Source: Candidatus Onthocola gallistercoris | GTDB taxonomy: Bacteria > Bacillota > Clostridia > Lachnospirales > Lachnospiraceae | Direction of reading: 5' to 3' | Length of the DNA stretch: 64,000 nt | Assembly: GCA_018715345.1 (NCBI GenBank) | Contig: DVLT01000038.1 | Span: 7,614-71,613, forward strand | Shown here: positions 38,184 through 52,435 of the stretch, one piece after another | How the letters are laid out: each line of letters starts with the position of its first letter | Position numbering within the stretch: position 1 is the stretch's first letter | Notes under the pieces: model-generated | What the model was told of the DNA's origin: nothing | The model's database searches: none | What the model saw: only the letters and a program-made list of their open reading frames with translations | Position numbers and translations under genes: made by a program

Positions 38184-38187
38184 GTCT

Positions 38188-39255
38188 ATGCGATTTATAC
38201 ATACAGCAGATATCCATTTGGGGGCAGCGCCGGATAAGGGCAGCCCCTGGTCTGGAAAGCGGGAGCAGGAGATAAGGGAAAGTTTTTACCGTCTCCTCGA
38301 TCTGGCCAATGATGAAGGCATTGAACTTTTGCTGATCGCCGGCGATCTGTTCCATCGCCCTCCGCTGAAGCGGGAACTTAAAGAACTGAACTACCGGTTT
38401 GAGTCCATGTTCCAGACCCGGGTGGTCATGATGCCGGGAAATCATGACTTCTTAGGACCGGCATCCAATTACAACGGCTTTGAATGGGCGGATAATGTGA
38501 CGTTCTTTGGAAAAGAGTCCATGCAAAGAAAACACTTTCCCAAGTGGGATCTGTGGGTGTATGGCCTGGGGTATTGTCACAGAGAGATAAAGAAACCGCT
38601 GTACGATCATGTGCGTCCTGGAGACGAACCGGGAACCCATATCCTTCTGGCACACGGCGGGGACGAAAAGCATATTCCCATCGATTTTAAACAACTCTGC
38701 ACAGCCGGTTTCGACTATGCGGCATTGGGTCATATCCACAAGCCCCAGGTCATCGTTCCGGATCGGATCGCCTATTCCGGTTCACTGGAACCGACAGATC
38801 GGCTGGATGTGGGCCAGCGGGGATACATTTTGGGAGAGATCGAAGATACGCTCCATCCACAAGTTTCCACACAGTTTTGCCCATTTTCTGTCCGGGAGTA
38901 TAAAAACATCCGGATACCTTCCGATGTGGATATGACGTTGGGGAAATTGGAAGAAACCCTGAAACGGCTCATCGGCTCCGAAGGCAGTCAGCACATATAC
39001 AATATATGCCTCCAGGGATTCCGGGATCCGGACATCCGCTTTGACGAGGATGTGTTGATGAAACTGGGCAACATCGCTTCTGTGAAAGATGAGACCCTTC
39101 CCTGGTTTGACTTTGATCAGTTGTATGCGGATAACCGGGATAATCTCATCGGACGGTTTATCGGGAAAGTCCGGGAGATGCCCATGGATGACAAGAGGCG
39201 GCAGCAGATACTGACAGTAGGGATCCAGGCTTTGTACAGCCAGGAAGATAGGTGA
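38188..39255 (+). CDS. SbcD/YhaO-like metallophosphoesterase (DNA repair exonuclease)
   Basis: IHTADIHLG, GDLFH, GNHD and GHIH phosphoesterase motifs. Confidence 0.8.
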   Translation: MRFIHTADIHLGAAPDKGSPWSGKREQEIRESFYRLLDLANDEGIELLLIAGDLFHRPPLKRELKELNYRFESMFQTRVVMMPGNHDFLGPASNYNGFEWADNVTFFGKESMQRKHFPKWDLWVYGLGYCHREIKKPLYDHVRPGDEPGTHILLAHGGDEKHIPIDFKQLCTAGFDYAALGHIHKPQVIVPDRIAYSGSLEPTDRLDVGQRGYILGEIEDTLHPQVSTQFCPFSVREYKNIRIPSDVDMTLGKLEETLKRLIGSEGSQHIYNICLQGFRDPDIRFDEDVLMKLGNIASVKDETLPWFDFDQLYADNRDNLIGRFIGKVREMPMDDKRRQQILTVGIQALYSQEDR

Positions 39256-39259
39256 CGTC

Positions 39260-41182
39260 ATGATCATAAAAGATTTATATATGCAGCATTTCGGAAAGTT
39301 CCATGACAGACATATCCGGCTGGATCGGGGAATGAACATCATCTACGGGGACAATGAAGCCGGTAAGTCCACCATGACCAGTTTCATTGAAGCCATGTTT
39401 TTCGGGACCGAACGGGCCCGGGGAAAGGCGGCCAGAAAAGATATGTACAGTCGTTATCAACCCTGGGAAGGCGGACGAAACTACGAAGGCCGTATGACAG
39501 TGGAAGATAACGGGGAGACCTTTCGCCTCAGCAGGAATTTTTATAAGGAAGATCCGTCTTTTTCAGTGGAACATATGCAGAGCGGGAAAAAGGTTTCGTT
39601 GGCGGATGAACGGATCGATGACTTGTTTGACGGCCTGACCCGGCCAAATTTTAAAAATACCCTTTGTATCGGTCAACTGTCCGGACGGCCGGACAGTCAG
39701 TATGGGCTGTCTTTGCAGGCACAAATGGCCAATGCGGCAAAGACCAGCACAACGGGGGTGGATTTAAAAGGCGCGTTGGAATACCTGAAAAAGGAACGGC
39801 GTCAATATGACTCAAAAGCCATCAAAGACCGTCTGCAGGCCATCGATGACCAGTTAAACGGTACCGTCCCGTTGATGGATCCGGAGGAATACGATAGACA
39901 GCATGCTCGACTGGAACAGCAGATCAAGGACAATGAGGCCCGGATACGGGAAGCCCGACAGTCGGGAAAGACGGCCCGAAAAAAAGATCAGAAGCAGCGG
40001 ATGGAGGCCATACGCCTTCTGGAAGAGAATAATTATCTGGCTGAAGAATATCAGCGGAAAAAAGCCCGATATAACGCCCTTGGCAAAAAAGCATCCAGAG
40101 GGGATTATCAGACGCTGCAAAGGCAGTGGCGGGAAGCCAGAGATACGTATAATCAGTCTTACGATAAATTGTCCCGGAGAAATGGAAGAGATCTGGCCAT
40201 CTTATTTTCGGTGATGATGTTTGGCCTCCTCATACTGATGGTATTTTTCTTTCTGAAAAATTCCACCATATACCGCATCGGAGCCTGCCTGGTGTTTGCC
40301 GCTGTACTCATCGGCTGCGCCCTGCTTTTGATGACTGGACGCGGCCAGTTAAAACGGCGGACGCGCAAGGCCAGGGAAGCTATGGAACAGTACCAGGAAC
40401 AGATGGAAGAAGGCATGGCCGGCCAGGGACAGGCTCGGGAAAGGGAAACCCTGCGCCAGGAATTGATCCGGCTGAAAGAAAAGTATGATGCGATCCAAGA
40501 ACCCCTTCAGGAATATATGGATATATACGGGGAAGATCTGTCCCTGATCGACGAGGAAGAGGACGGAGAAGATGTCCTTGAGCCGTTGAACCGGGAGCGG
40601 GAGGAACTGATACGGAAGAAGGAGCAGCTAAATGCCCGGAAAGAATGGGCCGACCGGGCGGAGGCAGACCGGATGGCCCTGGAAGAGGAAGCGTCGGTTC
40701 TTCAAGAAAAAATGGCGGAAAATGAAGAACAGTCGGGGATCATCGAGGAATGTGCGGAGATCATCAGATCTCTTTCGGAAGACATCCACGGGGATTTCGG
40801 GCAGGAGCTGAACCAATGGGTATCCGGGATCTTTAACCGGATGACCGGCGGCAAATATCCATCGGTCCGTGTGGACGAGCAGTTGGGCATCCAGGTGGAT
40901 GACGGACATCAGTTTGTGGATATCGACCTGTTGAGCCAGGGGACAAAAGATCAGTTATACCTGTCCCTTCGGCTGGCCATGGTCCACCTGCTTTTTGGCG
41001 GCAAACCCATGCCGGTGATCCTGGATGATACCTTTGCCAGTTTTGATGACAGCCGGATGGCGGAGACGCTGCACTGGCTGGGAAATGAAACGGGTTTGCA
41101 GGTCATCATCCTGACTTGTCATCATCGGGAAGCGGCCGCACTGGATGAAATGGGTATGGATTACCATTATGTGGAATTGTGA
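39260..41182 (+). CDS. SbcC/YhaN-like AAA ATPase with coiled coil and a central TM pair
   Basis: Walker A GDNEAGKST, long charged coiled coils, two central hydrophobic helices, C-terminal LILDDTFASFD Walker B. Confidence 0.7.
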   Translation: MIIKDLYMQHFGKFHDRHIRLDRGMNIIYGDNEAGKSTMTSFIEAMFFGTERARGKAARKDMYSRYQPWEGGRNYEGRMTVEDNGETFRLSRNFYKEDPSFSVEHMQSGKKVSLADERIDDLFDGLTRPNFKNTLCIGQLSGRPDSQYGLSLQAQMANAAKTSTTGVDLKGALEYLKKERRQYDSKAIKDRLQAIDDQLNGTVPLMDPEEYDRQHARLEQQIKDNEARIREARQSGKTARKKDQKQRMEAIRLLEENNYLAEEYQRKKARYNALGKKASRGDYQTLQRQWREARDTYNQSYDKLSRRNGRDLAILFSVMMFGLLILMVFFFLKNSTIYRIGACLVFAAVLIGCALLLMTGRGQLKRRTRKAREAMEQYQEQMEEGMAGQGQARERETLRQELIRLKEKYDAIQEPLQEYMDIYGEDLSLIDEEEDGEDVLEPLNREREELIRKKEQLNARKEWADRAEADRMALEEEASVLQEKMAENEEQSGIIEECAEIIRSLSEDIHGDFGQELNQWVSGIFNRMTGGKYPSVRVDEQLGIQVDDGHQFVDIDLLSQGTKDQLYLSLRLAMVHLLFGGKPMPVILDDTFASFDDSRMAETLHWLGNETGLQVIILTCHHREAAALDEMGMDYHYVEL

Positions 41183-41228
41183 TAAAGACAAAAAAAGCGT
41201 ATAAAAGTACAAAAAATAAGTCGAATCC

Positions 41229-41287
41229 GGACAGAAAATGACAGAATCCGGACACATCATTCCAAAGGGATAAATATATGATACAAT
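41229..41287 (+). promoter_or_regulatory. Promoter P1 with a tripartite direct-repeat operator (candidate LytTR site)
   Basis: GGACA (41229) N6 GACAG (41240) N5 GGACA (41250), then 27 nt, then TGaTACAAT with -10 at 41282-41287. The wider 11-mer GAATCCGGACA is repeated with 21-bp periodicity. Confidence 0.55.
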
Positions 41288-41302
41288 ACGGAGGCAGAGA
41301 TC

Positions 41303-42028
41303 ATGGGGGAAAACATGAGAATAGCAGTTGTGGATGACGAACCCTTTTTCCAGGAGGAAATCATACGATGTCTGAAGGAGAGCGGGAGAAAACTGGGGAT
41401 ACGGATGAGTATCGAAAGTTTTGATTCGGCAGAGCAGCTGCGCCGGGAGATTAGGGAAACCGGAACCTTCAGCGCCTATTTTCTGGATTACAGTCTGGAA
41501 GGGGAGAATGGTTTTGAACTGGCCCAGTATCTGAACCGTCATGGCGAGCATCCGTATATCATCTTTGTCACTTCCTATGACGGGATGGCGGTGGATGCTT
41601 ACCAGCTGGATGCGTTCCGGTTTATTCCAAAGCTGGAAATGGAATCGCGGATCGAAGAGGCTGTAACAAGTATATACAGGGAATGTCAGCCGGGAAACCG
41701 GCGGTATTATATCCTGGTAACCAGAGATCGGATCGATCGGGTGGATTACCGGGATATCCTGTATTTCAAAAAGGATGGACGATATACCCAGCTGCGGACG
41801 GCCAGACATTGGGTCAGTATCCGCAAATCTCTGAAGGAAATATGGGACGAGCTGCCGCCGGAAGAATTTGTTTTTGTCAACAAAAGCTGTATTGTCAATC
41901 TGAGCCATACAGTGGGTGTCCAGGAACGGTATGTGATCCTGAGCAGCCGGGAGGAGCTGCCCATCAGCCGCTCCCAGTACAAACCCGTCAGAGACAAGAT
42001 TTTTGAATACTGGCAGGCGAAAAGATGA
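41303..42028 (+). CDS. LytTR/AlgR-family response regulator (RR1)
   Basis: Receiver domain (IAVVDDE, FLDYSL) and C-terminal LytTR domain (ILYFKKDGRYTQL...FVFVNKSCIVNL). GGAGG lies 8 nt before ATG 41303. Confidence 0.85.
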   Translation: MGENMRIAVVDDEPFFQEEIIRCLKESGRKLGIRMSIESFDSAEQLRREIRETGTFSAYFLDYSLEGENGFELAQYLNRHGEHPYIIFVTSYDGMAVDAYQLDAFRFIPKLEMESRIEEAVTSIYRECQPGNRRYYILVTRDRIDRVDYRDILYFKKDGRYTQLRTARHWVSIRKSLKEIWDELPPEEFVFVNKSCIVNLSHTVGVQERYVILSSREELPISRSQYKPVRDKIFEYWQAKR

Positions 42029-43335
42029 GTCTATTTTACGCAATTTGGGAATTTGTATATTGTTTTGCAGAACTGTTTGTCACATGGCGGCTGTTGTCGG
42101 CCATTTTTCTCCTTCCCCATCGTGTGAGGGAGGATTGGAAGGCGTTTCTCTGGTTCGTGCCCCTGGGGATCATTCAGGGCGTGAATGCCCAGGGTGTTAT
42201 GATGTCCATCGCCATATTGTATATCAATATCGCCTATATGACTGTCCTGTATGTGAAAAAGGCGGAGACGGATAAAAAGGATGTGCTGCTGATCGTGGCA
42301 ACCGTGTGCAGTTCATTCTATCTGTTCCGGCTGGCGACGATACATTTGATCGGATTTTTATTGGATATCGGGGAGTTTGGCCGATATCTTTACATGGAGC
42401 ATAGTATTGAACGGCTTTTGGTACAGCTATTCCAAATAGTATGCCTGGCCATTTTAAGCGGAGGTTTGACGCATCATTTTGAAAAGTCGCCTTTTGACAT
42501 GGAATGCTGGCGTTGGACATTGCTTTTGGTAACAGTGACAGAGAATCTGGCTGTCATTTATTTTCAAGGGATTTTTATTAATTACCAGTGGAAGGATATC
42601 CTACAGGATGTTTTGTTGCTGTCCTTTGTGCTGCACATACTGGCAACACTCGTTCTGGCCAAGTTCCAATGGCGGTATCAGAAGATGCGGCTGGACACGG
42701 CGGACATACGGAATGCGGAGATACTGGACAAGTATCACCAGTTGGAAGAAGTGCAGAAGGCACAGGCGTCCATGCTCCATGACTTGAGGAATTATCTGGT
42801 GGTCTTAAACGGGGAGATCAGCATGGGTAACCGGGAAGCGGCCAAAAGGACGCTGAGAGATATCATAGATACTGTGCCCAACGTGGAACCTAAAACCTAT
42901 ACCGGCCACGGCGTCATCGACTGGCTGCTCCGGGTAAAAAGCGCGGAGGCGGCGGAAAAGGGCGTGGAGATGTTCATCGCCGGCGATAAGGTGGGCGAAC
43001 TGGCCATCACCGAACTGGAGATATGTACGCTGCTGGGTAATCTTTTGGACAATGCGGTGGAAGCGGCCCAGAAGGCTCCGGAGAAATGGGTGGATGTGGA
43101 GATCTGGCGGGAAAAGGATCTTTTGTTCCTGAATGTGGGCAACAGTCTGGCGGAGCCGCCAAAGCAGAGTGGAAGGTATTTCCTCACCTCCAAGCAGGAC
43201 AAGATGCACCATGGCATCGGCCTGAGAAATGTGGACCGGGTGGTGAGAAAATATAGCGGCAAGCTGAACTTCAAAGTGGACGAGGAACGGTTTGACGCGG
43301 AAGTCATATTAAATGCGAAAAGGAGACAGGAATGA
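42025..43335 (+). CDS. AgrC/HPK10-type membrane histidine kinase (GHKL)
   Basis: 6-7 N-terminal TM helices. H-box MLHDLRNYL, N-box LLGNLLDNAVEAA, G-box HGIGLRNV. ATGA overlap with the RR1 stop. Confidence 0.8.
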   Translation: MSLFYAIWEFVYCFAELFVTWRLLSAIFLLPHRVREDWKAFLWFVPLGIIQGVNAQGVMMSIAILYINIAYMTVLYVKKAETDKKDVLLIVATVCSSFYLFRLATIHLIGFLLDIGEFGRYLYMEHSIERLLVQLFQIVCLAILSGGLTHHFEKSPFDMECWRWTLLLVTVTENLAVIYFQGIFINYQWKDILQDVLLLSFVLHILATLVLAKFQWRYQKMRLDTADIRNAEILDKYHQLEEVQKAQASMLHDLRNYLVVLNGEISMGNREAAKRTLRDIIDTVPNVEPKTYTGHGVIDWLLRVKSAEAAEKGVEMFIAGDKVGELAITELEICTLLGNLLDNAVEAAQKAPEKWVDVEIWREKDLLFLNVGNSLAEPPKQSGRYFLTSKQDKMHHGIGLRNVDRVVRKYSGKLNFKVDEERFDAEVILNAKRRQE

Positions 43336-43481
43336 TGAGAGAACAGAACATGGACAGGATCAACGTGGAAGAAGTGAAAAGTGAAATGGAACAGATGAAA
43401 TCTTTCAAAAACGCAGAGATTGAGCCGAGAATGTCTATTACAGTTACATGTACAGCACTCTTTACAGTTATCTGCTGTTGA
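43332..43481 (+). CDS. Lanthipeptide precursor peptide (LanA-like), 49 aa, absent from the ORF track
   Basis: AGGAGA at 43321-43326. The ATG overlaps the kinase TGA. Translation: MMREQNMDRINVEEVKSEMEQMKSFKNAEIEPRMSITVTCTALFTVICC. A LanM gene starts 87 nt downstream. Confidence 0.8.
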   Translation: MMREQNMDRINVEEVKSEMEQMKSFKNAEIEPRMSITVTCTALFTVICC

Positions 43482-43491
43482 TCGAATAGTC

Positions 43492-43531
43492 AAAAAGGGA
43501 TAAAAATCCGCTGATTTTTATCCCCTTTTTG
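43492..43531 (+). terminator. Intercistronic hairpin/terminator between precursor and lanM
   Basis: Perfect 12-bp stem: GGGATAAAAATC (43497-43508), loop CGCT, GATTTTTATCCC (43513-43524). Followed by CTTTTTG. Confidence 0.75.
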
Positions 43532-43568
43532 TTACCATAAAGATTTTATTGGATGTTGGGGGAACGTT

Positions 43569-46559
43569 ATGTTTGATAAAAGACAAAGTTATCTGAATGA
43601 GCGGATCTACAAAAAGCATGAGGGAGGTGTGCGGACGCCGGAGTTATGGAAAGAGCTGTTTGGGGATGCATCATGTCAGATGATCGAAAACCGTTATCCA
43701 CAGGTGCGCGCCTATTTTGCCCAGGAACCCTATACAGTGGAAGAGGGTTGGCCGGATGCTTGCGACGGAAAGATCTTTACCCTGTATCAGCACGGGTTTT
43801 ATCACGGAAAAGCCCAATGGAATAAAGAAGTATTTGACAGCTTCTACATTCCATGGCTGAGCACGGCCAGGGAATATTTCCGATACATTTATCCGGACAG
43901 CAGACAGGATACGGCCTTTTTTACGGAGGGTTTGCCAGGATTCCGAAAAAAGATGGTCACTTTGTCTTTAAGGGTACTGATCCAGGAGATGAAAGTCTGG
44001 GGCGATGATGGGGAATCGGGAGAACTATACCAACGATACAACGAGGATGCCTTAAAGGATGAGATTTATGTCGATCAACTGTATGAAAAATATCCGGTCA
44101 TGCTGCGGGAATTGATCCGGTGTGTTCGTCAGACATGTGAATCCATCAAAGAATGTTTGGAATATCTGGAAAAAGACCGGGGGGAGATCTGCCAAAGGCT
44201 GCTGGGAGGCCGTTCCTTTGGAAAAGTAACAGTAGTCAAAGATGCTTTGGGCGATACCCATCATAATGGGCGATCCGTACTGGAACTGACCTTGGATACA
44301 GGAGATAAACTGATCTATAAACCCCATAACCTGGAGCATGAAGCGTTTTATCAAGAGATGACCCATATTTTATCAGAAGGCTGTCGGGTGGAAACCTATG
44401 TCCGACCCATTATTTGCCGGGAAGATCACGGATGGGAAAAACAGATCGAAGCTTCTTCATGTGGGACCCGGGAAAACGTACAGGATTATTACTACCGGAT
44501 GGGTATCCATCTGTTTAGCGCCTGGCTGTTTTCTGTAAAAGATCTGCATTACGAAAATATCATTGCCATGGGAGTTTATCCGGTTTTTGTGGATACAGAA
44601 GCGCTGTTGGTGCCGGAACGAAAGGGGGATCCGGAGCTTTTGTTCGAAGTGGAACGGTGGAAGAATCAGTCGGTCCTTGCCACCTGTCTGCTGCCTTCCC
44701 GGACTCCCGGTTTTGGAAGGGATATCAGCGGCATCTGCGGAAGCGGCGGAAAAAGCTGCCTGAAAACCCCCACAGTGCTGGATCCTGGAACCGGGAAGAT
44801 GCGCATGGGGTATGCCATGGGAGATATGGCGGAAGGCAAAAACATCCCCCGAACGCCAAGGGGATATGAGGTTCCAGAAAACTTTGCGGATGAGATTGAA
44901 AAAGGATTCACAGATGCTTTTCAGTATGCCTTGTTTATCAAGTCCCGGCTGATGAAAGCCGTGGAGGATCGGAAGGATATAAAGGGACGGTATCTATACC
45001 GATATACCCAGGAATATACATTAAATCTGTGGAGTTCCTATAACCCTTTGTTTTTATCAGATGGGGGTATGCGCCACATGTTTCTCATGAACATGGCAGA
45101 GAATAAGGAAAGCCAAACGATCCGCCGGATCAATGATCTGGAAATCGAGCAGATGCTTGGCGGAGACATTCCCTATTTTACGGCGGATTCCCTGGATACC
45201 GGCTTGCATGATCCTAAAGGGGAGATGGTGGAAGGGTGGTTTGCGGAAACGCCAAAGGCGATGGCGGCCCGCCGGATCTGCCGACTGTCAGAGCAGGATA
45301 TGGGAAATGAACGGACGGCGATAAGGGAAGCTTTTGACCGGAATTTTTCCCTCAACGATATGGTATGTACGGCAGAAACGGACAGGGAAACAGTCGTACG
45401 TTGGATACTGGAAAAAATCGATGGGGAAAAGATCCTCCTGCATGATGGCAGCGTGGCCTGGGTACAGAAAGACTACAGCGCCGAAGGCCAGGGGGCAAGG
45501 ACTACGGATATATTAAGCATGAACCTGTATGACGGTATCGGCGGGATCGCCTTGTTCATTGCCGCCGGCTGGAAAGTGCTCAAAGACGACAGACTTCGGC
45601 AGATGATGGATGTGTTGAGACAGACATTATTTGCCTATACGGATCAGATGATGCAGTTGGAGCGAAAGAGCAAGACCGGCGCTTTCGGCGGTGAGGCATC
45701 CATTGTCTATACCTATCATCTGTTGTATAAGATCACAGGAGAAAAGATCTATCTCACCTATAGCCAGCGACATGTGAAGATACTGGAACGGTATATAGAA
45801 ATGGACGACTGGTATGATGTGGTGGATGGAAATGCAGGAGCCATCCTTGTGCTTTTAAATCTTTACGAGGAGACGGAAAAGGGGCGTTATCTCCGGGATG
45901 CCATTAAAGCCGGCATATGTCTGCTTGAGCACCATGTGGAGCAGCAGCAGGGGATCGCCTGGAAAAACAAAGCGTCCGGTCAGATGTTGGCAGGCTTTTC
46001 CCACGGCGACAGCGGAATGTTCCTGGCATTGTCCCGGCTGTATCATCATACCGGTGATGAAGGCGTTCTGGATGTGTTAAAGCAGATCCGGGAACATGAG
46101 ATGTCACTGTATGTGGAAGAAGTGGACGACTGGCTGGATCTTCGGGGAAAGACGCCCGAAGTGCGGGAAACGGTGGCCTGGTGCCACGGCGCGGGCGGTA
46201 TCCTTTTGTCCCGCCTGAAAAGCTATCCCTATCTGACGGGAACGTTGAAGGAAGAGGTGGCGAAAGATATCCATCGGGCAGCCCAAAAGGCGGCGGTTGG
46301 CCATATACGGAAGGACTTCTGTCTCTGCCACGGCAATTTCGGGAACCGATGGATCCGGGATGCCTATAGGCTTTTTTCAGGAGAGACCGGGACAGAAAAA
46401 CCGGTGTCCGACCTGTTGATAGAAAAGATCCGAGAGCATGGGCTGGAAGCGGAAGAAAGCCGGCGTTACAGTCTGATGCACGGCCTGGCCGGCATCGGCT
46501 ACGGCCTGCTGCGGGAGATGGATCCGTCCCTGCCGGATATACTGGCAGTGGAAGTGTAA
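43569..46559 (+). CDS. lanM: Class II lanthipeptide synthetase LanM
   Basis: 996 aa. N-terminal DUF4135-type dehydratase region. C-terminal LanC-like cyclase with GFSHGDSG, WCHGAGG and CLCHGNFG (Zn-ligand and catalytic His motifs). Confidence 0.9.
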   Translation: MFDKRQSYLNERIYKKHEGGVRTPELWKELFGDASCQMIENRYPQVRAYFAQEPYTVEEGWPDACDGKIFTLYQHGFYHGKAQWNKEVFDSFYIPWLSTAREYFRYIYPDSRQDTAFFTEGLPGFRKKMVTLSLRVLIQEMKVWGDDGESGELYQRYNEDALKDEIYVDQLYEKYPVMLRELIRCVRQTCESIKECLEYLEKDRGEICQRLLGGRSFGKVTVVKDALGDTHHNGRSVLELTLDTGDKLIYKPHNLEHEAFYQEMTHILSEGCRVETYVRPIICREDHGWEKQIEASSCGTRENVQDYYYRMGIHLFSAWLFSVKDLHYENIIAMGVYPVFVDTEALLVPERKGDPELLFEVERWKNQSVLATCLLPSRTPGFGRDISGICGSGGKSCLKTPTVLDPGTGKMRMGYAMGDMAEGKNIPRTPRGYEVPENFADEIEKGFTDAFQYALFIKSRLMKAVEDRKDIKGRYLYRYTQEYTLNLWSSYNPLFLSDGGMRHMFLMNMAENKESQTIRRINDLEIEQMLGGDIPYFTADSLDTGLHDPKGEMVEGWFAETPKAMAARRICRLSEQDMGNERTAIREAFDRNFSLNDMVCTAETDRETVVRWILEKIDGEKILLHDGSVAWVQKDYSAEGQGARTTDILSMNLYDGIGGIALFIAAGWKVLKDDRLRQMMDVLRQTLFAYTDQMMQLERKSKTGAFGGEASIVYTYHLLYKITGEKIYLTYSQRHVKILERYIEMDDWYDVVDGNAGAILVLLNLYEETEKGRYLRDAIKAGICLLEHHVEQQQGIAWKNKASGQMLAGFSHGDSGMFLALSRLYHHTGDEGVLDVLKQIREHEMSLYVEEVDDWLDLRGKTPEVRETVAWCHGAGGILLSRLKSYPYLTGTLKEEVAKDIHRAAQKAAVGHIRKDFCLCHGNFGNRWIRDAYRLFSGETGTEKPVSDLLIEKIREHGLEAEESRRYSLMHGLAGIGYGLLREMDPSLPDILAVEV

Positions 46560-46648
46560 AAAAGTTGTAAGAACTGGCGGAACGGATGCTATAACCGGAC
46601 GTTATATGGTAAAATCAATAGTAGGAGACGAACTGTATATAGATTGTT

Positions 46649-47455
46649 TTGGCAGGCAGCAGAATCGTGTCTGAAAATCAAGCATACACAGAAGGTCAGA
46701 AACTGCCCGGATATCTGAAGATCGGGATTGTGGACGATGAAGTTTATTTCCAGGAACAGATATATGGCATTTTAAAGAAATGTGAAAAATGTTTAAAAAT
46801 CCGCATGGATATCCGGATATTTTCTTCGGCAGAGGAGCTGATGGAAAGTCTGAATGAGAAAGAAATATTTACAGCCTTTTTTCTGGATTATCGTCTGGGC
46901 GATGACAATGGTTTTGCGCTGGCAGAAAAGATCCAAGCCTTTTTACCGGATGCTTTTTTGATCTTTGTCTCCTCTTACTCGGAAAAAGTATTTGATGCGT
47001 TTCGGCTGAAAGCTTTTCGATTTATCCCCAAAACGGATATGGAAAAACGTATAAGCGAGGCTATCGGGTCGATTTACCGGGAATTGGAAAGCGTGAATAC
47101 GGCATATTATGTGGTGGCAACGGGCCAGGGAATGGAACAGATCTGTTTCAGGGATATACTTTATGTCCGTAAAGAAGGCAAATACAGTGTGATCGTGACC
47201 AAGGCGGGTGAAAGACGTGTGAGAAAATCGCTGAAGGAGATTTCCGGGGAATTGCGGGAAAACGAATTTGCCTATACGGCAAGAGATTATATTGTTAATC
47301 TGGAGCATATATCCGGTTTTTCCGGCAATGATGTGATCTTGGAAGACGACTGTTTGATTCCGGTAAGCAGAGAGAGGAGAAAGGACCTAAAACAAAAAAT
47401 TTGGGACTATTACGAACAAAAGAGGAAGGAATCGAAAAATAGAAATAAAAATTAG
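46649..47455 (+). CDS. LytTR-family response regulator (RR2), paralog of RR1
   Basis: IGIVDDE, FLDYRL and a LytTR domain (ILYVRKEGKYSVI...YIVNLEHI). There is no in-frame ATG before the receiver domain. Candidate starts are TTG 46649, GTG 46667 and ATT 46643, all poorly spaced from AGGAGA (46623-46628). Confidence 0.75.
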   Translation: MAGSRIVSENQAYTEGQKLPGYLKIGIVDDEVYFQEQIYGILKKCEKCLKIRMDIRIFSSAEELMESLNEKEIFTAFFLDYRLGDDNGFALAEKIQAFLPDAFLIFVSSYSEKVFDAFRLKAFRFIPKTDMEKRISEAIGSIYRELESVNTAYYVVATGQGMEQICFRDILYVRKEGKYSVIVTKAGERRVRKSLKEISGELRENEFAYTARDYIVNLEHISGFSGNDVILEDDCLIPVSRERRKDLKQKIWDYYEQKRKESKNRNKN

Positions 47456-47472
47456 AAAGATACGGTATTCAA

Positions 47473-47531
47473 GGACAAAAAAAGACAGTTGGAGGACAAT
47501 CCTCTGCGAATTTTTTAGAAACTGTTATACT
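47473..47531 (+). promoter_or_regulatory. Promoter P2 with the same tripartite operator as P1
   Basis: GGACA (47473) N6 GACAG (47484) N5 GGACA (47494), then 27 nt, then TGtTATACT with -10 at 47526-47531. Confidence 0.55.
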
Positions 47532-47640
47532 GGAACCAACGAATGAAGCTGGCTTATTCAAAAGATTTAAGGGGGGCGATACCGTTGGGGATGGAACAAT
47601 GGAAACTGCAGACAATCAGAAAAGGGAGGAGAGGAAGAGT

Positions 47641-48057
47641 ATGAGGAAAAGGATATCAGCTATTCTAATGACAAGCTTAGTGGCTTTTTTGACAATCAGC
47701 CAGTTTGGGGGAAATGCTTTTGCGGGGAATATTTCAGATACGGAATATTACTTTTCAATTGATTACGCTTTAGACACAAGAGATACACCGGCACGGACAA
47801 AATATGATGATACTTCACATTATATGTATCCAAACCGTTATATTAATCAGTCATATGTTGCTTGGGGAGTTGGATGCGCTTGGAATGGTACTGAAATTGA
47901 AAGTTATGATGAACTTGCGATAACGATTACAGGACCTTACGAATATTATATTCCGAATTATTGTTATGAAAATGATAGACCAATGGCGCGAGTAAGAGCA
48001 TATTCTTATTATGATGATTTATCAGTGGCTGGTGTATGGAGCCCAGATAGTATTTAA
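47641..48057 (+). CDS. Small secreted Tyr-rich protein of unknown function
   Basis: GGGAGGAGAGGA RBS. Sec signal MRKRISAILMTSLVAFLTISQFGGNAFA with predicted cleavage before GN. The mature protein is about 110 aa with 17 Tyr and 2 Cys. The gene is visibly AT-richer than its neighbours. Confidence 0.6.
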   Translation: MRKRISAILMTSLVAFLTISQFGGNAFAGNISDTEYYFSIDYALDTRDTPARTKYDDTSHYMYPNRYINQSYVAWGVGCAWNGTEIESYDELAITITGPYEYYIPNYCYENDRPMARVRAYSYYDDLSVAGVWSPDSI

Positions 48058-48103
48058 CAAAATGTGTATAAAGTATACATATGAAAGTTATAAAAAATCT
48101 GAA

Positions 48104-48124
48104 GGGGTCTTTATTTAAGACCCC
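48104..48124 (+). terminator. Weak hairpin after the secreted-protein gene
   Basis: GGGGTCTT, loop TATTT, AAGACCCC. The T tract that follows is poor (TCTCTG). Confidence 0.35.
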
Positions 48125-48152
48125 TCTCTGAGAAACTGTTGGAGGTGAAATT

Positions 48153-48914
48153 TTGAGAAGAATATGCGGTATATTGGCCGTGGTACTTTCCTTTTTTACC
48201 CTTGGGTGCGCCTGTTCCGCTCCGGCGGACACGGAAACGGAGAGTCCGGCTCAGACCAACTATGTGGCAGAAGCGCATAAAGGGGAGACAACGGACGTGT
48301 TGCTTGAGGACGGCGGGGGGCCCCGGGGGGAACAGCCGGAGGAGATCATGCCGGAAGCAAAGCTGTTTGATCAGGAACAGCAGGTGAGAAACGGTGATAT
48401 CCAGTTGACCTTTCAGACGATCACCTATTATGACAATGTGGACGAATCAGGGATACAGTTGGGTGAAGATGCGGAAAATTACTGGATCCGCTATGATGTG
48501 ATCGATGAATCCGGCCAGTGCCTGGATCATGCGCGTATTGCCATGGCACAGGTAAACATCGCCAACCTGTCGGAGAAGGCGGAAACCATCAGCCTGATGG
48601 AATTTAACCTTCGGTTTTATGAGCCGGACACGGGGAACGCTTCTGTGACACGGGAAGTGGGTTATGCCGATCCGCTCCAGTCCAATGACGATCCAAAGAA
48701 GATGTATGAATATACGTTTGAACCGGGAGAAGATGTGGATTTCACTTTAGGTTATGTATTAAGAAGTGAGGATGTGGAAAGGATGGAAAAGGGAGAGCTG
48801 ATTCCCACCATGGAAGTGAACAACCGGGGATATCTTCCCACAGAGGAGATGACGAAGGATCATCTGGATGAAATGGCTTACATAGAACTTCCGATTCCGG
48901 AGGAAGAACCATGA
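48153..48914 (+). CDS. Putative lipoprotein (LanI-like position)
   Basis: TTG start after GGAGGTG. Signal peptide ending FFTLGCAC (lipobox-like), then an acidic extracytoplasmic domain that looks beta-rich. Confidence 0.55.
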   Translation: MRRICGILAVVLSFFTLGCACSAPADTETESPAQTNYVAEAHKGETTDVLLEDGGGPRGEQPEEIMPEAKLFDQEQQVRNGDIQLTFQTITYYDNVDESGIQLGEDAENYWIRYDVIDESGQCLDHARIAMAQVNIANLSEKAETISLMEFNLRFYEPDTGNASVTREVGYADPLQSNDDPKKMYEYTFEPGEDVDFTLGYVLRSEDVERMEKGELIPTMEVNNRGYLPTEEMTKDHLDEMAYIELPIPEEEP

Positions 48915-49741
48915 GAAAGATGATAAAGACAGAATTGCGCAGGGCCTTCTGCAACCGGACGTTTTTTGTCATCCTCGGGCTTGGGCTGGCTTTTGTCATA
49001 TGGCATACCGTCCAATACAAAATACCCTATACCCGGTCGCTGGGAGTGAGTTATCACGGGGAAGAGCTCTATCCTCATAATGTATATCAGGAATGTATTC
49101 TTGGCAACAGTATGAGTGTTCATGCTTATATTTACAGCATGTGCCTTCCCATATTGGCGGCGCTCCCCTTTGGCGCGTCTGCCTGCCAGGATCGGCAGAG
49201 CGGATACCGGGATCAGATCCTGACCCGGACAAAACGGAGCACATATTACCAGGCAAAATGGATTGCCGCCTTTCTTTCCGGCGCGGCGGCGGTTGTCCTT
49301 CCGATGATTTTTGATTTTATTGTGACCCTGTGGTTTTTTCCGACGCTGCCCGGAGACAGTATGAGCCGTTGGGACAGTGTGGGGATCGATGGGATGATGG
49401 CAGAAATTTATTATCATATGCCCATGGTATATATGCTGGCAAAGTGGATGTTCCTGGCTGCTTTTGGCGGTATTTTCGCAACAATGTCGCTGACTGCGGG
49501 GATGTTCGCAAAAAATATGGTTGTCGTACTGTTGACACCGGTCCTTGTCCAACTTTTATATAATTCGGCGACATCGTATCTGAATGCCCGGAACTGGCAG
49601 TTTATGGCGTATTATACGGTTTATCAGCCGTTGTTTTCCATGCGGCTGTGGAAACCTGTTCTGGTGGGCGGCATCATGCTGCTTATCTGCCTGCTTTTAT
49701 ATTGCCGGAAGGCAAGCGTGAAGGACGCGTTAAATACATAG
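48911..49741 (+). CDS. ABC-2-type transporter permease
   Basis: Six hydrophobic segments. 4-nt overlap with the upstream gene. Immediately precedes an ABC ATPase gene. Confidence 0.6.
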   Translation: MRKMIKTELRRAFCNRTFFVILGLGLAFVIWHTVQYKIPYTRSLGVSYHGEELYPHNVYQECILGNSMSVHAYIYSMCLPILAALPFGASACQDRQSGYRDQILTRTKRSTYYQAKWIAAFLSGAAAVVLPMIFDFIVTLWFFPTLPGDSMSRWDSVGIDGMMAEIYYHMPMVYMLAKWMFLAAFGGIFATMSLTAGMFAKNMVVVLLTPVLVQLLYNSATSYLNARNWQFMAYYTVYQPLFSMRLWKPVLVGGIMLLICLLLYCRKASVKDALNT

Positions 49742-49753
49742 GAGGGGATTCAT

Positions 49754-50419
49754 ATGTATGTGGAGTTGAAAGATGTTTCCAAGCAGATCCGTCGCAGCCC
49801 GATACTGAACCATATAACGGTGGGATTTGAAAAGGGACGCATATATGGCCTGAAAGGAAAAAACGGATCCGGAAAGACCATGCTTTTGCGCATGATCGCC
49901 GGTCTGATCCTTCCAAGTTCCGGCCAGGTGCTGATCGATGGAAAAATACTTGGAAAAGATATGTCCTTTCCTGAGAGTATCGGCATACTTATCGAAAATC
50001 CGTCCTTTATAGGCGGCGAAACGGGGCTTTCCAATCTATCCATTCTGGCGTCTATTCAGAAAAAAGCGGATCGGAAAGATTTGGAAGAAACTCTTGAACG
50101 GGTGGGGCTGAATCCCGGGGATAAACGGATTTACAGAAAGTACTCCCTCGGCATGAAGCAGCGGCTGGGTATCGCGGCGGCGATCATGGAAAAACCGGAT
50201 ATCATCCTTCTTGATGAACCGATCAATGCCCTGGATGACAAAGGGGTGGAAGCGGTACGGCAGATACTGGCAGAAGAGAAGAAACGGGGAGCGCTGATCA
50301 TCGTTGCCTGTCATGATGAGACAGAACTCCGGCTGCTTTCAGATGAGATTTTTTATATGCAGGGCGGAGAGATCACAGACCATGAGATACTGGAGAAGGA
50401 ACGGGAGGATAAGCCGTGA
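49754..50419 (+). CDS. ABC transporter ATP-binding protein
   Basis: Walker A GKNGSGKT, signature YSLGMKQR, Walker B IILLDEP. Confidence 0.9.
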   Translation: MYVELKDVSKQIRRSPILNHITVGFEKGRIYGLKGKNGSGKTMLLRMIAGLILPSSGQVLIDGKILGKDMSFPESIGILIENPSFIGGETGLSNLSILASIQKKADRKDLEETLERVGLNPGDKRIYRKYSLGMKQRLGIAAAIMEKPDIILLDEPINALDDKGVEAVRQILAEEKKRGALIIVACHDETELRLLSDEIFYMQGGEITDHEILEKEREDKP

Positions 50420-50961
50420 GATATAAATATTTGTGGACGGCTGTGGCCGTCATCTTTGCTGTGACCGGCATCATCGCGGCGGTACGGAGCGTACAGCTGA
50501 ACCATCAATATCCCGTTCCCAGGAACGTGATGGTTTCGGAGAATACACCGGCAGAAAAGAACGGATGCGCCATTACAGTGACGGACAGCGTCCTGGAACC
50601 GCTGGCGGATGACATGGAAGATCTGCCTGTGGGCGAACCGATATATATGGTCAAGGCATCGCTGCGGATCGAGAATATCAGTGACTATGACAGCAGCATC
50701 TATCTGACAGATTTCGGATTACAGTCGGATATATGGTATAACCAGATGAGCCGGCACGAGACGACGGTGCTGAATCCGGAACTGGAATCCGCCGTCATAA
50801 CTTTACATCCGGGAGAATCCGAAGAAATCGTGCTTCCTTTTATGATATATTGGGACAGGGGAATGGAAGAAATGGCAAAACAGCTTATGGCGGGCGAGGC
50901 AGATTTGGATCTTGTCATCACTCAGTATCCGGTCAAACGGTTCTGCCGGCTGTCTTACTGA
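50416..50961 (+). CDS. Membrane-anchored extracytoplasmic protein, possibly DUF4352-like
   Basis: One N-terminal TM segment and a C-terminal domain that looks beta-rich. 4-nt overlap with the ATPase gene. Confidence 0.45.
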   Translation: MRYKYLWTAVAVIFAVTGIIAAVRSVQLNHQYPVPRNVMVSENTPAEKNGCAITVTDSVLEPLADDMEDLPVGEPIYMVKASLRIENISDYDSSIYLTDFGLQSDIWYNQMSRHETTVLNPELESAVITLHPGESEEIVLPFMIYWDRGMEEMAKQLMAGEADLDLVITQYPVKRFCRLSY

Positions 50962-50979
50962 CAGAAAAGAAGTGAAAAG

Positions 50980-51615
50980 ATGGGTAATAAAAAGATGATC
51001 TGGCTGCTGCCTGTTTTCGGAGCCATCCTGCTTATGGATATCCATCAACGGGCGGCTACATACAATATATTTTTTGCGTCCGATGGCGTTTTGGGATTTC
51101 TGATCTATCTTTCATCCATGGATACGGCGATTTATCCGATCCTGCTCCTTCTGCCAGCATATTTAAGTGTCCGAAGATATTTTCGGCTTGCTGTGATCAT
51201 ACGGAAGAAACATCGGAAAAGACTGGTATGGGAACAGACCAGAAACCTGATGCTGTTGGCGGGGCTGTTTTCGCTTTTGTATACAGCGCTTGCCTTCAGA
51301 GAAGTTTTAGGTAGACTGTGGCAGCCGGTGCCTGCAGAAGTATGGTTCCTGTTTTTGATCTTTAATTTTTTTAAACAGTCTTTTTTTATGCAGGTTTTTC
51401 TTCTGTGCCGGTGGATCAGCGGACACTATATACCGGGCATCCTTCTGGTGATTTGGTGCTGTGTTGCTGCCGCCCGGACGGCTGTGCCGGCTTTTGTATT
51501 CGGAACGATGGAAAAGACGTTGTTTTTCTGCCTGATTTTTTTGATGACGGATACCTTATTGCTGATACTGAATCTGGCAGCGGGGAAAAGATGTGATTTT
51601 ATTGAAAATACGTAA
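50980..51615 (+). CDS. Polytopic membrane protein
   Basis: About 6 hydrophobic segments. No family recognised. Confidence 0.45.
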   Translation: MGNKKMIWLLPVFGAILLMDIHQRAATYNIFFASDGVLGFLIYLSSMDTAIYPILLLLPAYLSVRRYFRLAVIIRKKHRKRLVWEQTRNLMLLAGLFSLLYTALAFREVLGRLWQPVPAEVWFLFLIFNFFKQSFFMQVFLLCRWISGHYIPGILLVIWCCVAAARTAVPAFVFGTMEKTLFFCLIFLMTDTLLLILNLAAGKRCDFIENT

Positions 51616-52435
51616 AAAAAGCAGCCTGAGCGGAATGATCCGTTATGATATGGCCCAGGGAATATGGAAAAATATCGGCTGGTTTTTGCCGGTGGTTTAC
51701 TTTACTTTCGCGTTCTTTGCGAAAACACGGCAGATGCTGGCTCTGCCCTTTGCCCCTCCGGTGGATAAGATGGGGCTGACAGATCTGGTTTTTTCATTTT
51801 TTGCCGGTATGGAGACATATCATCCGGGTCCCGGGCAGATGTTTGATCCGCCCATCCAGTGGCTGCTTGTCTTTTTTTATCTTTCTTTTCTCATCAGTTT
51901 CTATCCCGCCGCGGATATGAAAAAATATGGGCGGAATCTGATGATCCATGTCAAGAGCCGGGAAGTTTACTGGTACAGTAAATGTCTGTGGGTTTTTGCG
52001 ACAACCATGGTTTATTATGGACTGATCCTGCTTTTGATGGCCATTTTTCTTTTGATGACCGGAAACTATTCACCGGGGTTTCATAAAGATACAGGGGCAT
52101 TTCTGGCCGGTGTGATCGTTGGTCCGGAAACGGGAGCAGAGATTTGTTTTTTCATCCTGGTGACACCTTTTCTGGTCATGCTTTCTTTGGCCCTGTTCCA
52201 GAATCTGCTGAGTTTCGTGCTGTCGCCGGTTTACGGATTTTTGGTCAATATCGGTTTGGTCATCTGTTCGGCGTTTTTTAATACCAGTCTATGCGTGGGG
52301 CAGATTGCCATGTTCAAGAGAAGTTTTATTTTGGGCGGAAGTGTGGGATGGCCCCATCTGGTCATACCGATACTGCTCTCTGTACTCAGCATCCTGGCAG
52401 GCGGTATGTATTTTAAACGAAAAGATATCCTGTAA
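51593..52435 (+). CDS. Polytopic membrane protein (ABC-2 permease-like)
   Basis: About 6 hydrophobic segments. Overlaps the upstream gene. Confidence 0.45.
   Translation: MILLKIRKKSSLSGMIRYDMAQGIWKNIGWFLPVVYFTFAFFAKTRQMLALPFAPPVDKMGLTDLVFSFFAGMETYHPGPGQMFDPPIQWLLVFFYLSFLISFYPAADMKKYGRNLMIHVKSREVYWYSKCLWVFATTMVYYGLILLLMAIFLLMTGNYSPGFHKDTGAFLAGVIVGPETGAEICFFILVTPFLVMLSLALFQNLLSFVLSPVYGFLVNIGLVICSAFFNTSLCVGQIAMFKRSFILGGSVGWPHLVIPILLSVLSILAGGMYFKRKDIL

Follow-up and report, generated by a model that had tools for sequence, protein, structure and literature searches.

A candidate lanthipeptide pheromone for an AgrC-type sensor kinase in a gut Lachnospiraceae gene cluster

What does an AgrC-type sensor kinase respond to when the gene in the pheromone position beside it encodes not an AgrD-type precursor but a small Ser/Thr/Cys-rich peptide followed by a lanthipeptide synthetase? 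The locus examined here lies in a 64-kb stretch of DNA from Candidatus Onthocola gallistercoris (hereafter, the window), and an earlier note, made from the sequence alone, proposed that a LanM-modified peptide acts there as the signal of a LytTR/HPK10 circuit. Our analysis showed that the arrangement described in that note is real: the genes, both ATGA overlaps, the hairpin and the P1 operator are all where it placed them. More importantly, comparison with closely related strains showed that the peptide core and the sensor region of the kinase vary together, which points to a lanthionine-ring quorum-sensing signal that we could not find described. Profile searches, a scan for transmembrane (TM) segments, RNA folding and alignment to known structures gave the following features, all on the plus strand.

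41223..41254 (+), P1 operator, a presumed LytTR binding site: two perfect 11-nt direct repeats, GAATCCGGACA, at 41223 and 41244, 21 bp apart start to start
41282..41287 (+), P1 -10 box, TACAAT, exactly 27 nt after the second GGACA
41303..42028 (+), RR1, a response regulator with receiver (PF00072) and LytTR (PF04397) domains, aligning over its full length to ComE (4cbv, E = 1.6e-6)
42025..43335 (+), AgrC/ComD-type (HPK10-like) histidine kinase with a GHKL domain (PF14501, 77.5 bits), 6-7 hydrophobic TM segments and the H-box MLHDLRNYL; its start overlaps the RR1 stop by ATGA, and its only PDB hits are AgrC and are not significant
42283..42672 (+), hypervariable sensor segment of the kinase, aa 87-216, roughly TM3 to TM6
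43332..43481 (+), precursor peptide (lanA), 49 aa, with leader MMREQNMDRINVEEVKSEMEQMKSFKNAEIEPR and core MSITVTCTALFTVICC, no GG/GA cleavage site, an ATGA overlap with the kinase stop and an AAGGAG Shine-Dalgarno 7 nt upstream
43491..43531 (+), stem-loop followed by a T run, -18.4 kcal/mol, z = -5.9, a presumed attenuator or partial terminator between lanA and lanM
43569..46559 (+), LanM, class II lanthipeptide synthetase, 996 aa, DUF4135 + LANC_like (TIGR03897, 637 bits), with catalytic and zinc-ligand motifs intact (DLHYENIIA, SHG, WCHG, CLCHG) in an alignment to LicM2 (6st5, E = 3e-67)
46649..47455 (+), RR2, a second REC + LytTR regulator, a paralogue of RR1 at 43% identity and specific to the window's lineage
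47473..47498 (+), P2 operator, GGACA-N16-GGACA (AAGGACAA / TGGAGGACAA)
47526..47531 (+), P2 -10 box, TATACT, 27 nt after the second GGACA
47641..48057 (+), with an alternative start at 47599, secreted Tyr-rich protein of unknown function, with a signal peptide, a mature form of about 110 aa, two Cys and the C-terminus GVWSPDSI
48153..52435 (+), ABC module B: a DUF5027 lipoprotein with lipobox TLGC (48153-48914), a 6-TM permease (48911-49741), an ABC ATPase (49754-50419), a single-TM protein (50416-50961) and two polytopic membrane proteins (50980-51615 and 51593-52435)

Several details of the original description required correction. The P2 operator had been described as the same as that of P1, but it is a related element rather than the identical 11-mer, sharing the GGACA cores, the 21-bp phasing, 19 of 26 positions and the 27-nt distance to the -10 box. 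The exact pattern GGACA-N16-GGACA occurs only at these two places in the window, against a chance expectation that we estimate at about 0.1 for an exact match, although the second P2 repeat is overlapped by a terminator-like hairpin at 47490-47506. The permease had been assigned to the ABC-2 type, yet it matches no ABC-2 or LanE/G family model, and that label rests on topology and context only. The 1-kb stretch that includes the gene for the secreted protein has a GC content of 0.40 against about 0.48 elsewhere, and the secreted protein itself gave only weak, non-significant DUF2712 hits. The cluster as a whole is an island between sbcCD-like genes and GNAT/prs genes.

New evidence that the peptide is the ligand of the kinase comes from strain comparisons, in which related loci are numbered L001 onwards. 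Among the window and 12 metagenome contigs that are ~99% identical to it elsewhere, background diversity (π) is 0-0.03 and peaks occur at only two places, 42300-42699 in the kinase sensor (π 0.15-0.26) and 43400-43599 in the 16-residue peptide core and the spacer that follows it (π 0.06-0.145), separated by about 660 nt of kinase-domain DNA that is 98-99% identical. The sensor segment of the window shares 66% nucleotide identity with L013, L014 and L016 and 88.7% with L018, while its flanks are 98-100% identical, and dS is saturated in this segment against 0.04-0.08 in the flanks and 0.02 in LanM, indicating that the alleles are old, as in agr groups. Each sensor allele pairs with its own core variant or variants. 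Sensor type 1, found in the window and L003 (and assigned to L004 by its identical peptide and 99.2% overall identity), pairs with MSITVTCTALFTVICC; type 1', in L018, with TSITVTCTELLTIICC; type 2, in L013-L016, in which aa 107-160 are the most divergent part, with (V/A)TITVTCTALFTVICC; and the L001/L008 lineage with TSITVTCTALLSLICC. The peptide leader, in contrast, is nearly invariant. This is the pherotype pattern known from agrD/agrC and comC/comD, and is what is expected of a ligand-receptor pair. The co-variation nevertheless rests on four sensor alleles in nine loci where both regions are covered, with three further core variants (L005, L007 and L017) lacking sensor sequence. It is not strictly one-to-one, since type 2 pairs with both VT- and AT- cores, the size of the sensor change does not scale with that of the peptide change, and the localised divergence could partly reflect imported recombinant blocks.

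Other components of the locus do not track the core. LanM is 99.3% identical across variants, ABC module A is 99.0% identical between L002 and L018, and module B, over the stretch present in L018 (48207-50539), is 99.3% identical to that of the window, although the cores differ. The adjacency of kinase and peptide also recurs, with homologues of the peptide, in three other lineages. The order RR-HK-peptide-LanM is found at 63% LanM identity in L001/L008 and at 31% in L012, the two lineages in which the contig extends far enough to show LanM, and HK-peptide-hairpin recurs in L021; an equivalent hairpin is present in L001 and L021. In contrast, kinase relatives at 26-27% identity (L019 and L020) have no LanM. 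The operator architecture is likewise conserved, as GGACA-N16-GGACA lies upstream of RR1 in L001, L003, L013-L016 and L018, the 27-nt distance holds at both P1 and P2 of L001, and L001/L008 carry a perfect pair of TGGAGGACAA at the place equivalent to P2. No LanT or LanP is present in the window or in the orthologous loci L008, L018 and L012, so that the refuting condition named beforehand, a canonical LanT/LanP in orthologous loci, is not triggered, and no agrB/agrD, LanT (C39) or S8 protease was found in the cluster or among the ten large window ORFs tested.

The interpretation offered in the earlier note is partly supported. Placement of the peptide in the pheromone position of an AgrC/ComD-type kinase and LytTR circuit is now better supported than the sequence alone allowed, but the claim that the peptide acts mainly as a signal is not established, as a dual antibiotic and autoinducer role like that of nisin is equally possible. 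Translational coupling, which had been taken as support, is not conserved in its strict form, the gap between kinase and peptide genes being 5 nt in L001, 12 nt in L021 and 72 nt in L012. RR2 is absent from L001/L008 and L012, and its membership in the core circuit is not established. The same holds for the secreted protein, which is 29% identical to its L001 counterpart, as an essential output of P2: in L002 and L018 the P2 promoter and the 5' part of its gene are deleted, showing that the P2 output is not essential to the loop.

We propose, with moderate confidence, that the locus is an autoinducing circuit in which a class II lanthipeptide is probably the cognate extracellular ligand of an AgrC/ComD-type polytopic histidine kinase. 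In this model, P1 would drive RR1, the kinase and lanA, and the hairpin after lanA would let only part of the transcription continue into lanM. LanM would dehydrate Ser/Thr in the 15-16-residue core ([ST]-I-T-[VA]-x-C-[TS]-x-x-x-[TS]-x-I-C-C) and close up to three thioether rings. The peptide would leave the cell without a LanT, most plausibly through the ABC module or modules, and lose its leader after the Arg/Lys that precedes the core through an unidentified, possibly environmental, trypsin-like protease. The mature peptide would then bind the variable TM3-TM6 region of the kinase, and phosphorylated RR1, together with RR2 in this lineage, would bind the GGACA-N16-GGACA repeats at P1, giving positive feedback, and at P2, which would express the secreted DUF2712-like protein and the ABC module. 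Our data show the gene content, the intact LanM motifs, the shared and conserved operator architecture, the recurrence of the kinase-peptide adjacency (with LanM downstream where the contig allows) and the localised co-diversification, whereas the modification pattern, the export route, the cleavage site, ligand binding and the assignment of each regulator to a promoter are inferred.

Alternative explanations deserve consideration. It is possible, if not quite as well supported, that the peptide is primarily a narrow-spectrum lantibiotic that also autoinduces, as nisin, subtilin, mersacidin and pneumolancidin do, a reading that is compatible with sensing but opposed to a mainly signalling role. 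Core diversification would then reflect an arms race with competitors' immunity, and the P2 operon would supply export and self-protection. Autoinduction by lantibiotics through a cognate kinase is the rule in characterised loci (PMC4742701), several ABC modules occur per locus, and small uncharged class II lantibiotics such as mersacidin exist. Both ABC ATPases have the lantibiotic-protection family TIGR03740 as their best hit, although at 163 and 179 bits they fall far below the family cut-off of 310, and the permeases match no LanE/G model. However, the core has no charged residue in most variants and lacks the TxS/TxEC lipid II motif, the ABC modules do not track core variants, no LanT is present, and L012 has the cassette with no ABC module within 10 kb, beside a fatty-acid/polyketide cluster. 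We regard it as about as likely as not that the peptide also kills competitors.

It appears less likely that this is a conventional lantibiotic cluster whose kinase senses something else, such as an unidentified peptide, the unmodified precursor, a leader fragment, or envelope stress caused by the antibiotic, with the lanthipeptide only a regulated antimicrobial product and the ABC modules serving as LanFEG/LanI-type immunity. Besides the ATPase hits, tandem, mosaic ABC modules with lipoproteins resemble bacteriocin immunity islands, LytTR systems driven by a separate unmodified pheromone control lantibiotic loci, as with ComCDE and Smb in S. mutans, and agr genes lying next to lanM clusters are documented (PMC10301443). 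Yet those hits are far below the family cut-off and the permeases match no LanE/G model, the cluster contains no other candidate pheromone gene and no AgrB/AgrD, it is the kinase sensor and not the ABC modules that co-varies with the core, and near invariance of the leader while the sensor varies argues against a leader-derived signal. Decay of the locus, with no mature product made and variation reflecting relaxed constraint, is very unlikely. The absence of a dedicated transporter or protease, the P2 deletions in L002 and L018, and a variant ending in CG instead of CC (L007) would be consistent with it, but all reading frames are intact, dN/dS is low in LanM, RR1 and the kinase catalytic half, the LanM motifs and the leader are preserved, the core keeps its Ser/Thr/Cys scaffold across lineages with 31-63% LanM identity, and variation is confined to two spots rather than spread across the locus.

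Among described systems, agrBDCA of Staphylococcus and Clostridia and fsrABDC likewise pair a polytopic AgrC-type kinase bearing a PF14501 ATPase domain with a LytTR regulator, use an autoregulated promoter with two direct repeats about 21 bp apart and a ribosomal peptide made cyclic through a cysteine sulfur, and form allelic specificity groups with hypervariability confined to the peptide and the kinase sensor. Here there is no AgrB and no AgrD-type precursor, the ring would be a thioether (lanthionine) made by LanM rather than a thiolactone or lactone made by AgrB/FsrB, the gene order is RR-HK-peptide-enzyme, and the two hypervariable spots are separated by a conserved kinase domain. The three-component systems plnABCD, sppIP-K-R and comCDE/blpRH also carry the pheromone gene in the same operon as an HPK10-type kinase and LytTR regulator(s), with direct-repeat operators before several operons and with pherotypes (comC/comD, blpC/blpH), and plnABCD, like this window, has one kinase and two LytTR regulators. 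Their pheromones, however, are unmodified double-glycine peptides exported by ComAB-type C39 transporters, whereas this locus has no GG leader and no C39 transporter, and a LanM is part of the operon. In Clostridium acetobutylicum the lanM-type gene CA_C0082 lies immediately downstream of an AgrC/AgrA-type system and under its control (PMC10301443), but CA_C0082 homologues are truncated (670-728 aa), lack the zinc ligands and dehydratase residues, have no lanA and coexist with agrBD, and CA_C0082 is not needed for signal synthesis; here LanM is full length with intact motifs and an adjacent precursor gene.

In the autoinduction of nisin (NisRK), subtilin (SpaRK) and pneumolancidin (PldKR), a modified lanthipeptide is sensed by a kinase encoded in its own cluster and switches on biosynthesis and ABC genes, and a hairpin follows the structural gene (PMC4742701). 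The regulators of those systems are of OmpR or other non-LytTR types, their kinases are not known to be AgrC-type, and the clusters carry LanT and/or LanP and recognisable LanFEG/LanI, whereas the present locus combines an HPK10-like kinase with LytTR regulators, no LanT or LanP and a leader without a GG site. Both an agr-like circuit and lantibiotic autoinduction are thus familiar, and what differs here is that a lanthipeptide probably serves as the ligand of an AgrC/ComD-type kinase, in which case strains would carry different matched peptide-sensor alleles, or pherotypes, of a lanthionine-ring quorum-sensing signal.

The eleven-kilobase stretch forms a discrete island between sbcD/sbcC-like genes (38110-41182) and GNAT/prs genes on the other strand, and every gene listed in the earlier note is present, so that its observation holds, with one qualification concerning the second promoter. 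The genes and associated elements are as follows.

41303-42028, RR1, a response regulator with receiver and LytTR (PF04397) domains
42025-43335, histidine kinase with a PF14501 domain (77.5 bits) and six to seven hydrophobic segments
43332-43481, 49-codon ORF whose ATG overlaps the kinase stop (ATGA) and which is preceded by AAGGAG
43491-43531, a 17-20-bp stem with a T run (-18.4 kcal/mol, z = -5.9)
43569-46559, LanM (TIGR03897, 637 bits)
46649-47455, RR2, a LytTR (PF04397) regulator 43% identical to RR1
47641-48057, low-GC gene for a signal-peptide protein
up to 52435, a DUF5027 lipoprotein, a six-TM permease, an ABC ATPase, a single-TM protein and two polytopic membrane proteins

Elsewhere in the window, an 850-aa ORF on the plus strand (23940-26492) matched no Pfam family at E <= 1e-5.

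By domain content the synthetase is a bifunctional class II enzyme, with an N-terminal dehydratase (DUF4135) domain and a C-terminal LanC-like cyclase domain (PF13575 at 280 bits, PF05147 at 198 bits, and TIGR03897 well over its cut-off of 304). In an alignment with LicM2 (6st5, E = 3e-67), the dehydratase motifs (DLHYENIIA, GDTHHNG, YKPH) and the cyclase acid/base and zinc-ligand motifs (SHG, WCHG, CLCHG) are retained. We considered whether the locus might be equated with the CA_C0082-type inactive LanM-like effector, one of the truncated, motif-less proteins that follow agr operons in solventogenic clostridia (PMC10301443), and rejected this because the LanM described here is full length, has intact motifs and is accompanied by a precursor gene. 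The predicted core of the 49-aa precursor contains five Ser/Thr and three Cys, and this scaffold is conserved in four lineages. In the kinase, H252, D253 and N256 of the H-box are invariant across five homologues, although PDB matches to AgrC were not significant; RR1 aligns with ComE.

P1 carries a perfect 11-nt direct repeat, GAATCCGGACA, with a 21 bp spacing. The earlier note held that P2 has the same operator, and this needs qualifying: the 11-mer does not recur at P2, even when two mismatches are allowed. The exact pattern GGACA-N16-GGACA, however, occurs only twice on either strand of the 64-kb window, at 41229 (P1) and 47473 (P2). The two 26-mers agree at 19 positions, and in both the second GGACA is followed by exactly 27 nt and then a -10 hexamer, TACAAT at 41282 and TATACT at 47526. 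The same architecture and 27-nt distance hold at both promoters of L001, a relative whose LanM is only 63% identical. Paired direct repeats about 21 bp apart, upstream of the system's own operon and of a putative target operon, are thus a feature shared with agr/com/pln-type systems. One caveat is that a terminator-like hairpin at 47490-47515 (TGGAGGACAATCCTCTG followed by a T run), which could belong to RR2, overlaps the second P2 repeat; the same sequence might serve both as the RR2 terminator and as a regulator binding site.

The LanM lineage is isolated: apart from a 99% and a 63% relative, the next hits drop to 31% identity. The 63% lineage (L001, L008 and L009; an uncultured Lachnospiraceae MAG) sits at the same chromosomal place after sbcC and has RR1, kinase, a 48-aa peptide, hairpin, LanM, P2, a secreted protein and ABC modules, but no RR2. 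A 31% relative from an AT-rich organism (L012, a JGI 3300077312 contig) again has a LytTR regulator, a PF14501 kinase, a 61-aa peptide and LanM. At L012:5663-23330 this cassette lies between a NusG paralogue/Lactamase_B gene pair and a run of accD/accA, BCCP, biotin carboxylase, ACPS, acyltransferase, ACP and ketosynthase genes, followed by a gene for a product of over 1800 aa, rather than by ABC genes. This may be a quorum-controlled polyketide or fatty-acid cluster, or a lipidated lanthipeptide pathway. An operator search in L012 found a 21-bp-spaced direct repeat (ATAATGCTAAGTTA / ATAAGACTAAGTTA) at 7063-7097, upstream of a 183-aa ORF that precedes the regulator and kinase in the same operon, but none before the downstream acc/PKS genes. 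A LanM at 30% identity (L010:155-14320, Logan SRR31560078) sits next to a PadR regulator, a MatE exporter, a glycosyltransferase, a TPR protein, a cyclase, an ACP, two ketosynthases and an acyltransferase, with no convincing precursor ORF in the 780-nt gap upstream of LanM. Kinase relatives at 26-27% identity (L019, L020) have no LanM, showing that the LanM link is confined to a narrow clade. At L020:2926-9090 (GCA_910575155.1), a LytTR regulator and a kinase 26% identical to that of the window are followed by a 384-aa protein, three membrane proteins and an ABC ATPase, without a peptide gene; it may be an orphan sensing/transport module.

The family is rare. An exhaustive profile search of 1.84 billion representative proteins found only three peptide clusters, and L012 adds a fourth lineage. 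The third cluster, P0057, lies 12 nt after a kinase C-terminus and before a similar hairpin (L021). A metagenome scan with the LanM alignment, in which only two peptide patterns were used, confirmed nothing, and a scan with a degenerate DNA pattern for the core returned no hits but is uninformative, as its spacer was 18 N instead of 16. In four lineages the peptide gene abuts the kinase gene, with a 4-nt overlap in the window and gaps of 5, 12 and 72 nt in L001, L021 and L012, respectively, a relationship of position that does not by itself establish function. The cores align as [ST]-I-T-[VA]-x-C-[TS]-x-[LF]-[FL]-[TS]-x-I-C-C.

Leader ends and cores of the precursor peptides, by lineage
Window: EPR-MSITVTCTALFTVICC
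L001: EPK-TSITVTCTALLSLICC
L021: ALR-SITALCTELFTIICC
L012: NPDAIY-TITVGCSGFLTLICC

None of these has a double-glycine site, and three have Arg or Lys just before the core. No LanT with an ABC_membrane/Peptidase_C39 architecture and no subtilisin-type LanP is encoded in the cluster, in the ten large ORFs tested elsewhere in the window, or in the flanks of L008, L018 (a contig from the window's own population) and L012. Similarly, no Pfam family corresponding to an AgrB-type protease or a ComAB-type exporter was found in any cluster protein.

The decisive comparison came from twelve metagenome contigs of the same species-level population, recovered through the peptide, the kinase and LanM. Against the window they are 98-100% identical in sbcC, P1, RR1, kinase residues 1-86 and 217-436, the leader, LanM and RR2. 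Two segments diverge sharply: kinase residues 87-216, with 66% nucleotide identity in L013/14/16 and 88.7% in L018, and the 16-codon core with the spacer that follows it, at 60-94%. Sliding-window diversity over the 13 sequences shows two peaks, at 42300-42699 (π 0.15-0.26) and 43400-43599 (π 0.06-0.145), against a background of 0-0.03. Synonymous divergence is saturated in the sensor segment, compared with 0.04-0.08 in the rest of the kinase and 0.02 in LanM. These are old alleles embedded in a young background, as in agr specificity groups, and the variable part maps to the region from the third to the sixth predicted membrane segment. Where both regions are on one contig, the pairing is consistent.

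Pairing of kinase sensor alleles with peptide cores
Type 1: window and L003 (L004 by its identical peptide and 99.2% overall identity); core MSITVTCTALFTVICC
Type 1': L018; core TSITVTCTELLTIICC
Type 2: L013-L016; core VTITV... or ATITV...

The ABC modules do not follow the peptide. Module A is 99.0% identical between L002 and L018, and module B is 99.3% identical between the window and L018, although their cores differ at four positions including a charge change. The component that tracks the core is the kinase sensor, and it is neither the synthetase nor the transporters. One further peptide variant (L007:626-775) ends in ...FICG instead of ...ICC and has lost one of the two terminal cysteines; it could be an inactive allele, a sequencing error in a low-coverage contig, or a variant with a different ring pattern.

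The simplest reading is that the mature LanM product is the ligand of the kinase, and the circuit would then be an agr/com-like autoinduction loop with a lanthipeptide pheromone and natural pherotypes. We hold this sensing model with moderate confidence, since the sample is small (four sensor alleles), the pairing is not strictly one-to-one, and three further core variants lack sensor sequence. While the arrangement of the genes and the localized variation are read directly from the sequences, the dehydration and cyclization of the peptide and its ring pattern, its export, the removal of its leader, its binding to and activation of the kinase, and the division of labour between RR1 and RR2 are inferred. 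Export would most plausibly proceed through the ABC-2-like modules, whose ATPases also resemble DrrA and the PSM exporter PmtC. The leader would be removed after Arg/Lys by an unidentified protease, possibly an environmental trypsin-like one, for which the trypsin-dependent bacteriocins of gut Ruminococcus are a precedent.

The interpretation in the earlier note, that the lanthipeptide may act mainly as the quorum signal, is therefore supported only in part, as the evidence does not decide between a signal alone and a signal that is also an antibiotic. An antibiotic role is suggested by the presence of one to three tandem ABC modules with lipoproteins per locus, and by the fact that characterized lantibiotics usually autoinduce (PMC4742701). 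The lantibiotic-protection family (TIGR03740) is the best hit for both ATPase paralogues, but at 163 and 179 bits against a cut-off of 310. In contrast, none of the membrane proteins matched a MutE/EpiE or MutG permease family in NCBIfam or Pfam, even at E <= 5, the core is short and mostly uncharged, the ABC modules do not co-vary with it, and L012 lacks an ABC module nearby.

The region after LanM/RR2 (window 47451-52435; L018:13883-21171; L002:4783-9523; L008:11094-20793) is a recombination mosaic, an array of one to three paralogous ABC modules, each with a lipoprotein or anchored DUF5027/DUF5028 protein. L018 and L002 carry an extra module A, whereas the window has only module B. In L002 and L018 the P2 promoter and the 5' half of the secreted-protein gene are deleted, and a remnant of an L001-type gene is fused after RR2; the secreted protein is therefore dispensable. 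It is 29% identical between lineages and has a conserved GVWSPDSI end, but an AlphaFold2 model from a single sequence reached a pLDDT of only 38 and was unusable. Pfam and NCBIfam searches at relaxed thresholds with the permeases, the anchored protein and the secreted protein gave only non-significant hits, to DUF2712 for the secreted protein (window 47641-48057 and L008:11094-11513; E = 0.05-0.15) and to DUF2705 for the last membrane protein (51593-52435; E = 0.6). These families derive from the Bacillus subtilis yybN-yybJ ABC operon of unknown function, which would be a possible distant relative of the P2 operon; the only relevant paper found lists YybJKL as a type V exporter of unknown function.

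Compared with characterized systems, the locus resembles agr in its AgrC-type kinase, LytTR regulator, repeat operator, presumed sulfur-cyclized peptide and specificity alleles, but differs in the absence of AgrB/AgrD. It would work like nisin-type autoinduction, yet the regulators are LytTR rather than OmpR-family proteins, the kinase has no HisKA hit, only PF14501/PF02518, and LanT, LanP and the permeases of a LanFEG transporter were not found. It resembles plnABCD in having one kinase and two LytTR regulators, but only in this lineage. Co-location of agr genes and lanM clusters has been noted (PMC10301443), although there agrBD supply the signal. Literature searches, within an open-access corpus, found no report of a lanthipeptide acting as the ligand of an AgrC-type kinase.

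It is also possible, although we regard it as unlikely on present evidence, that RR-HK-lanA-lanM is a portable, dedicated quorum-sensing cassette in which a lanthionine-bridged peptide replaces the thiolactone AIP as ligand of AgrC-type kinases. In this view the peptide would have little or no antibiotic role, and the cassette, existing as pherotypes within a gut Lachnospiraceae species, would be wired to different outputs in different lineages: a secreted protein plus ABC modules here, and possibly a NusG/LoaP-associated fatty-acid/polyketide cluster in L012. Leader removal would rely on an external trypsin-like protease, coupling signalling to the gut environment.

Two well-studied paradigms have so far been kept apart: lantibiotic autoinduction, which uses non-LytTR two-component systems, and Agr/Com-type peptide quorum sensing, which uses thiolactone or unmodified peptides. 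This locus joins them, in that a LanM product appears to be the ligand of an AgrC-type receptor and the pair shows natural specificity alleles. If this is confirmed, thioether rings would join the chemistry of Gram-positive pheromones, and naturally matched peptide/receptor variants would be available for dissecting ligand recognition by polytopic HPK10 kinases. Some lanthipeptide clusters in gut Clostridia would then be communication devices rather than antibiotic clusters, which matters for genome-mining surveys that count them as antimicrobials.
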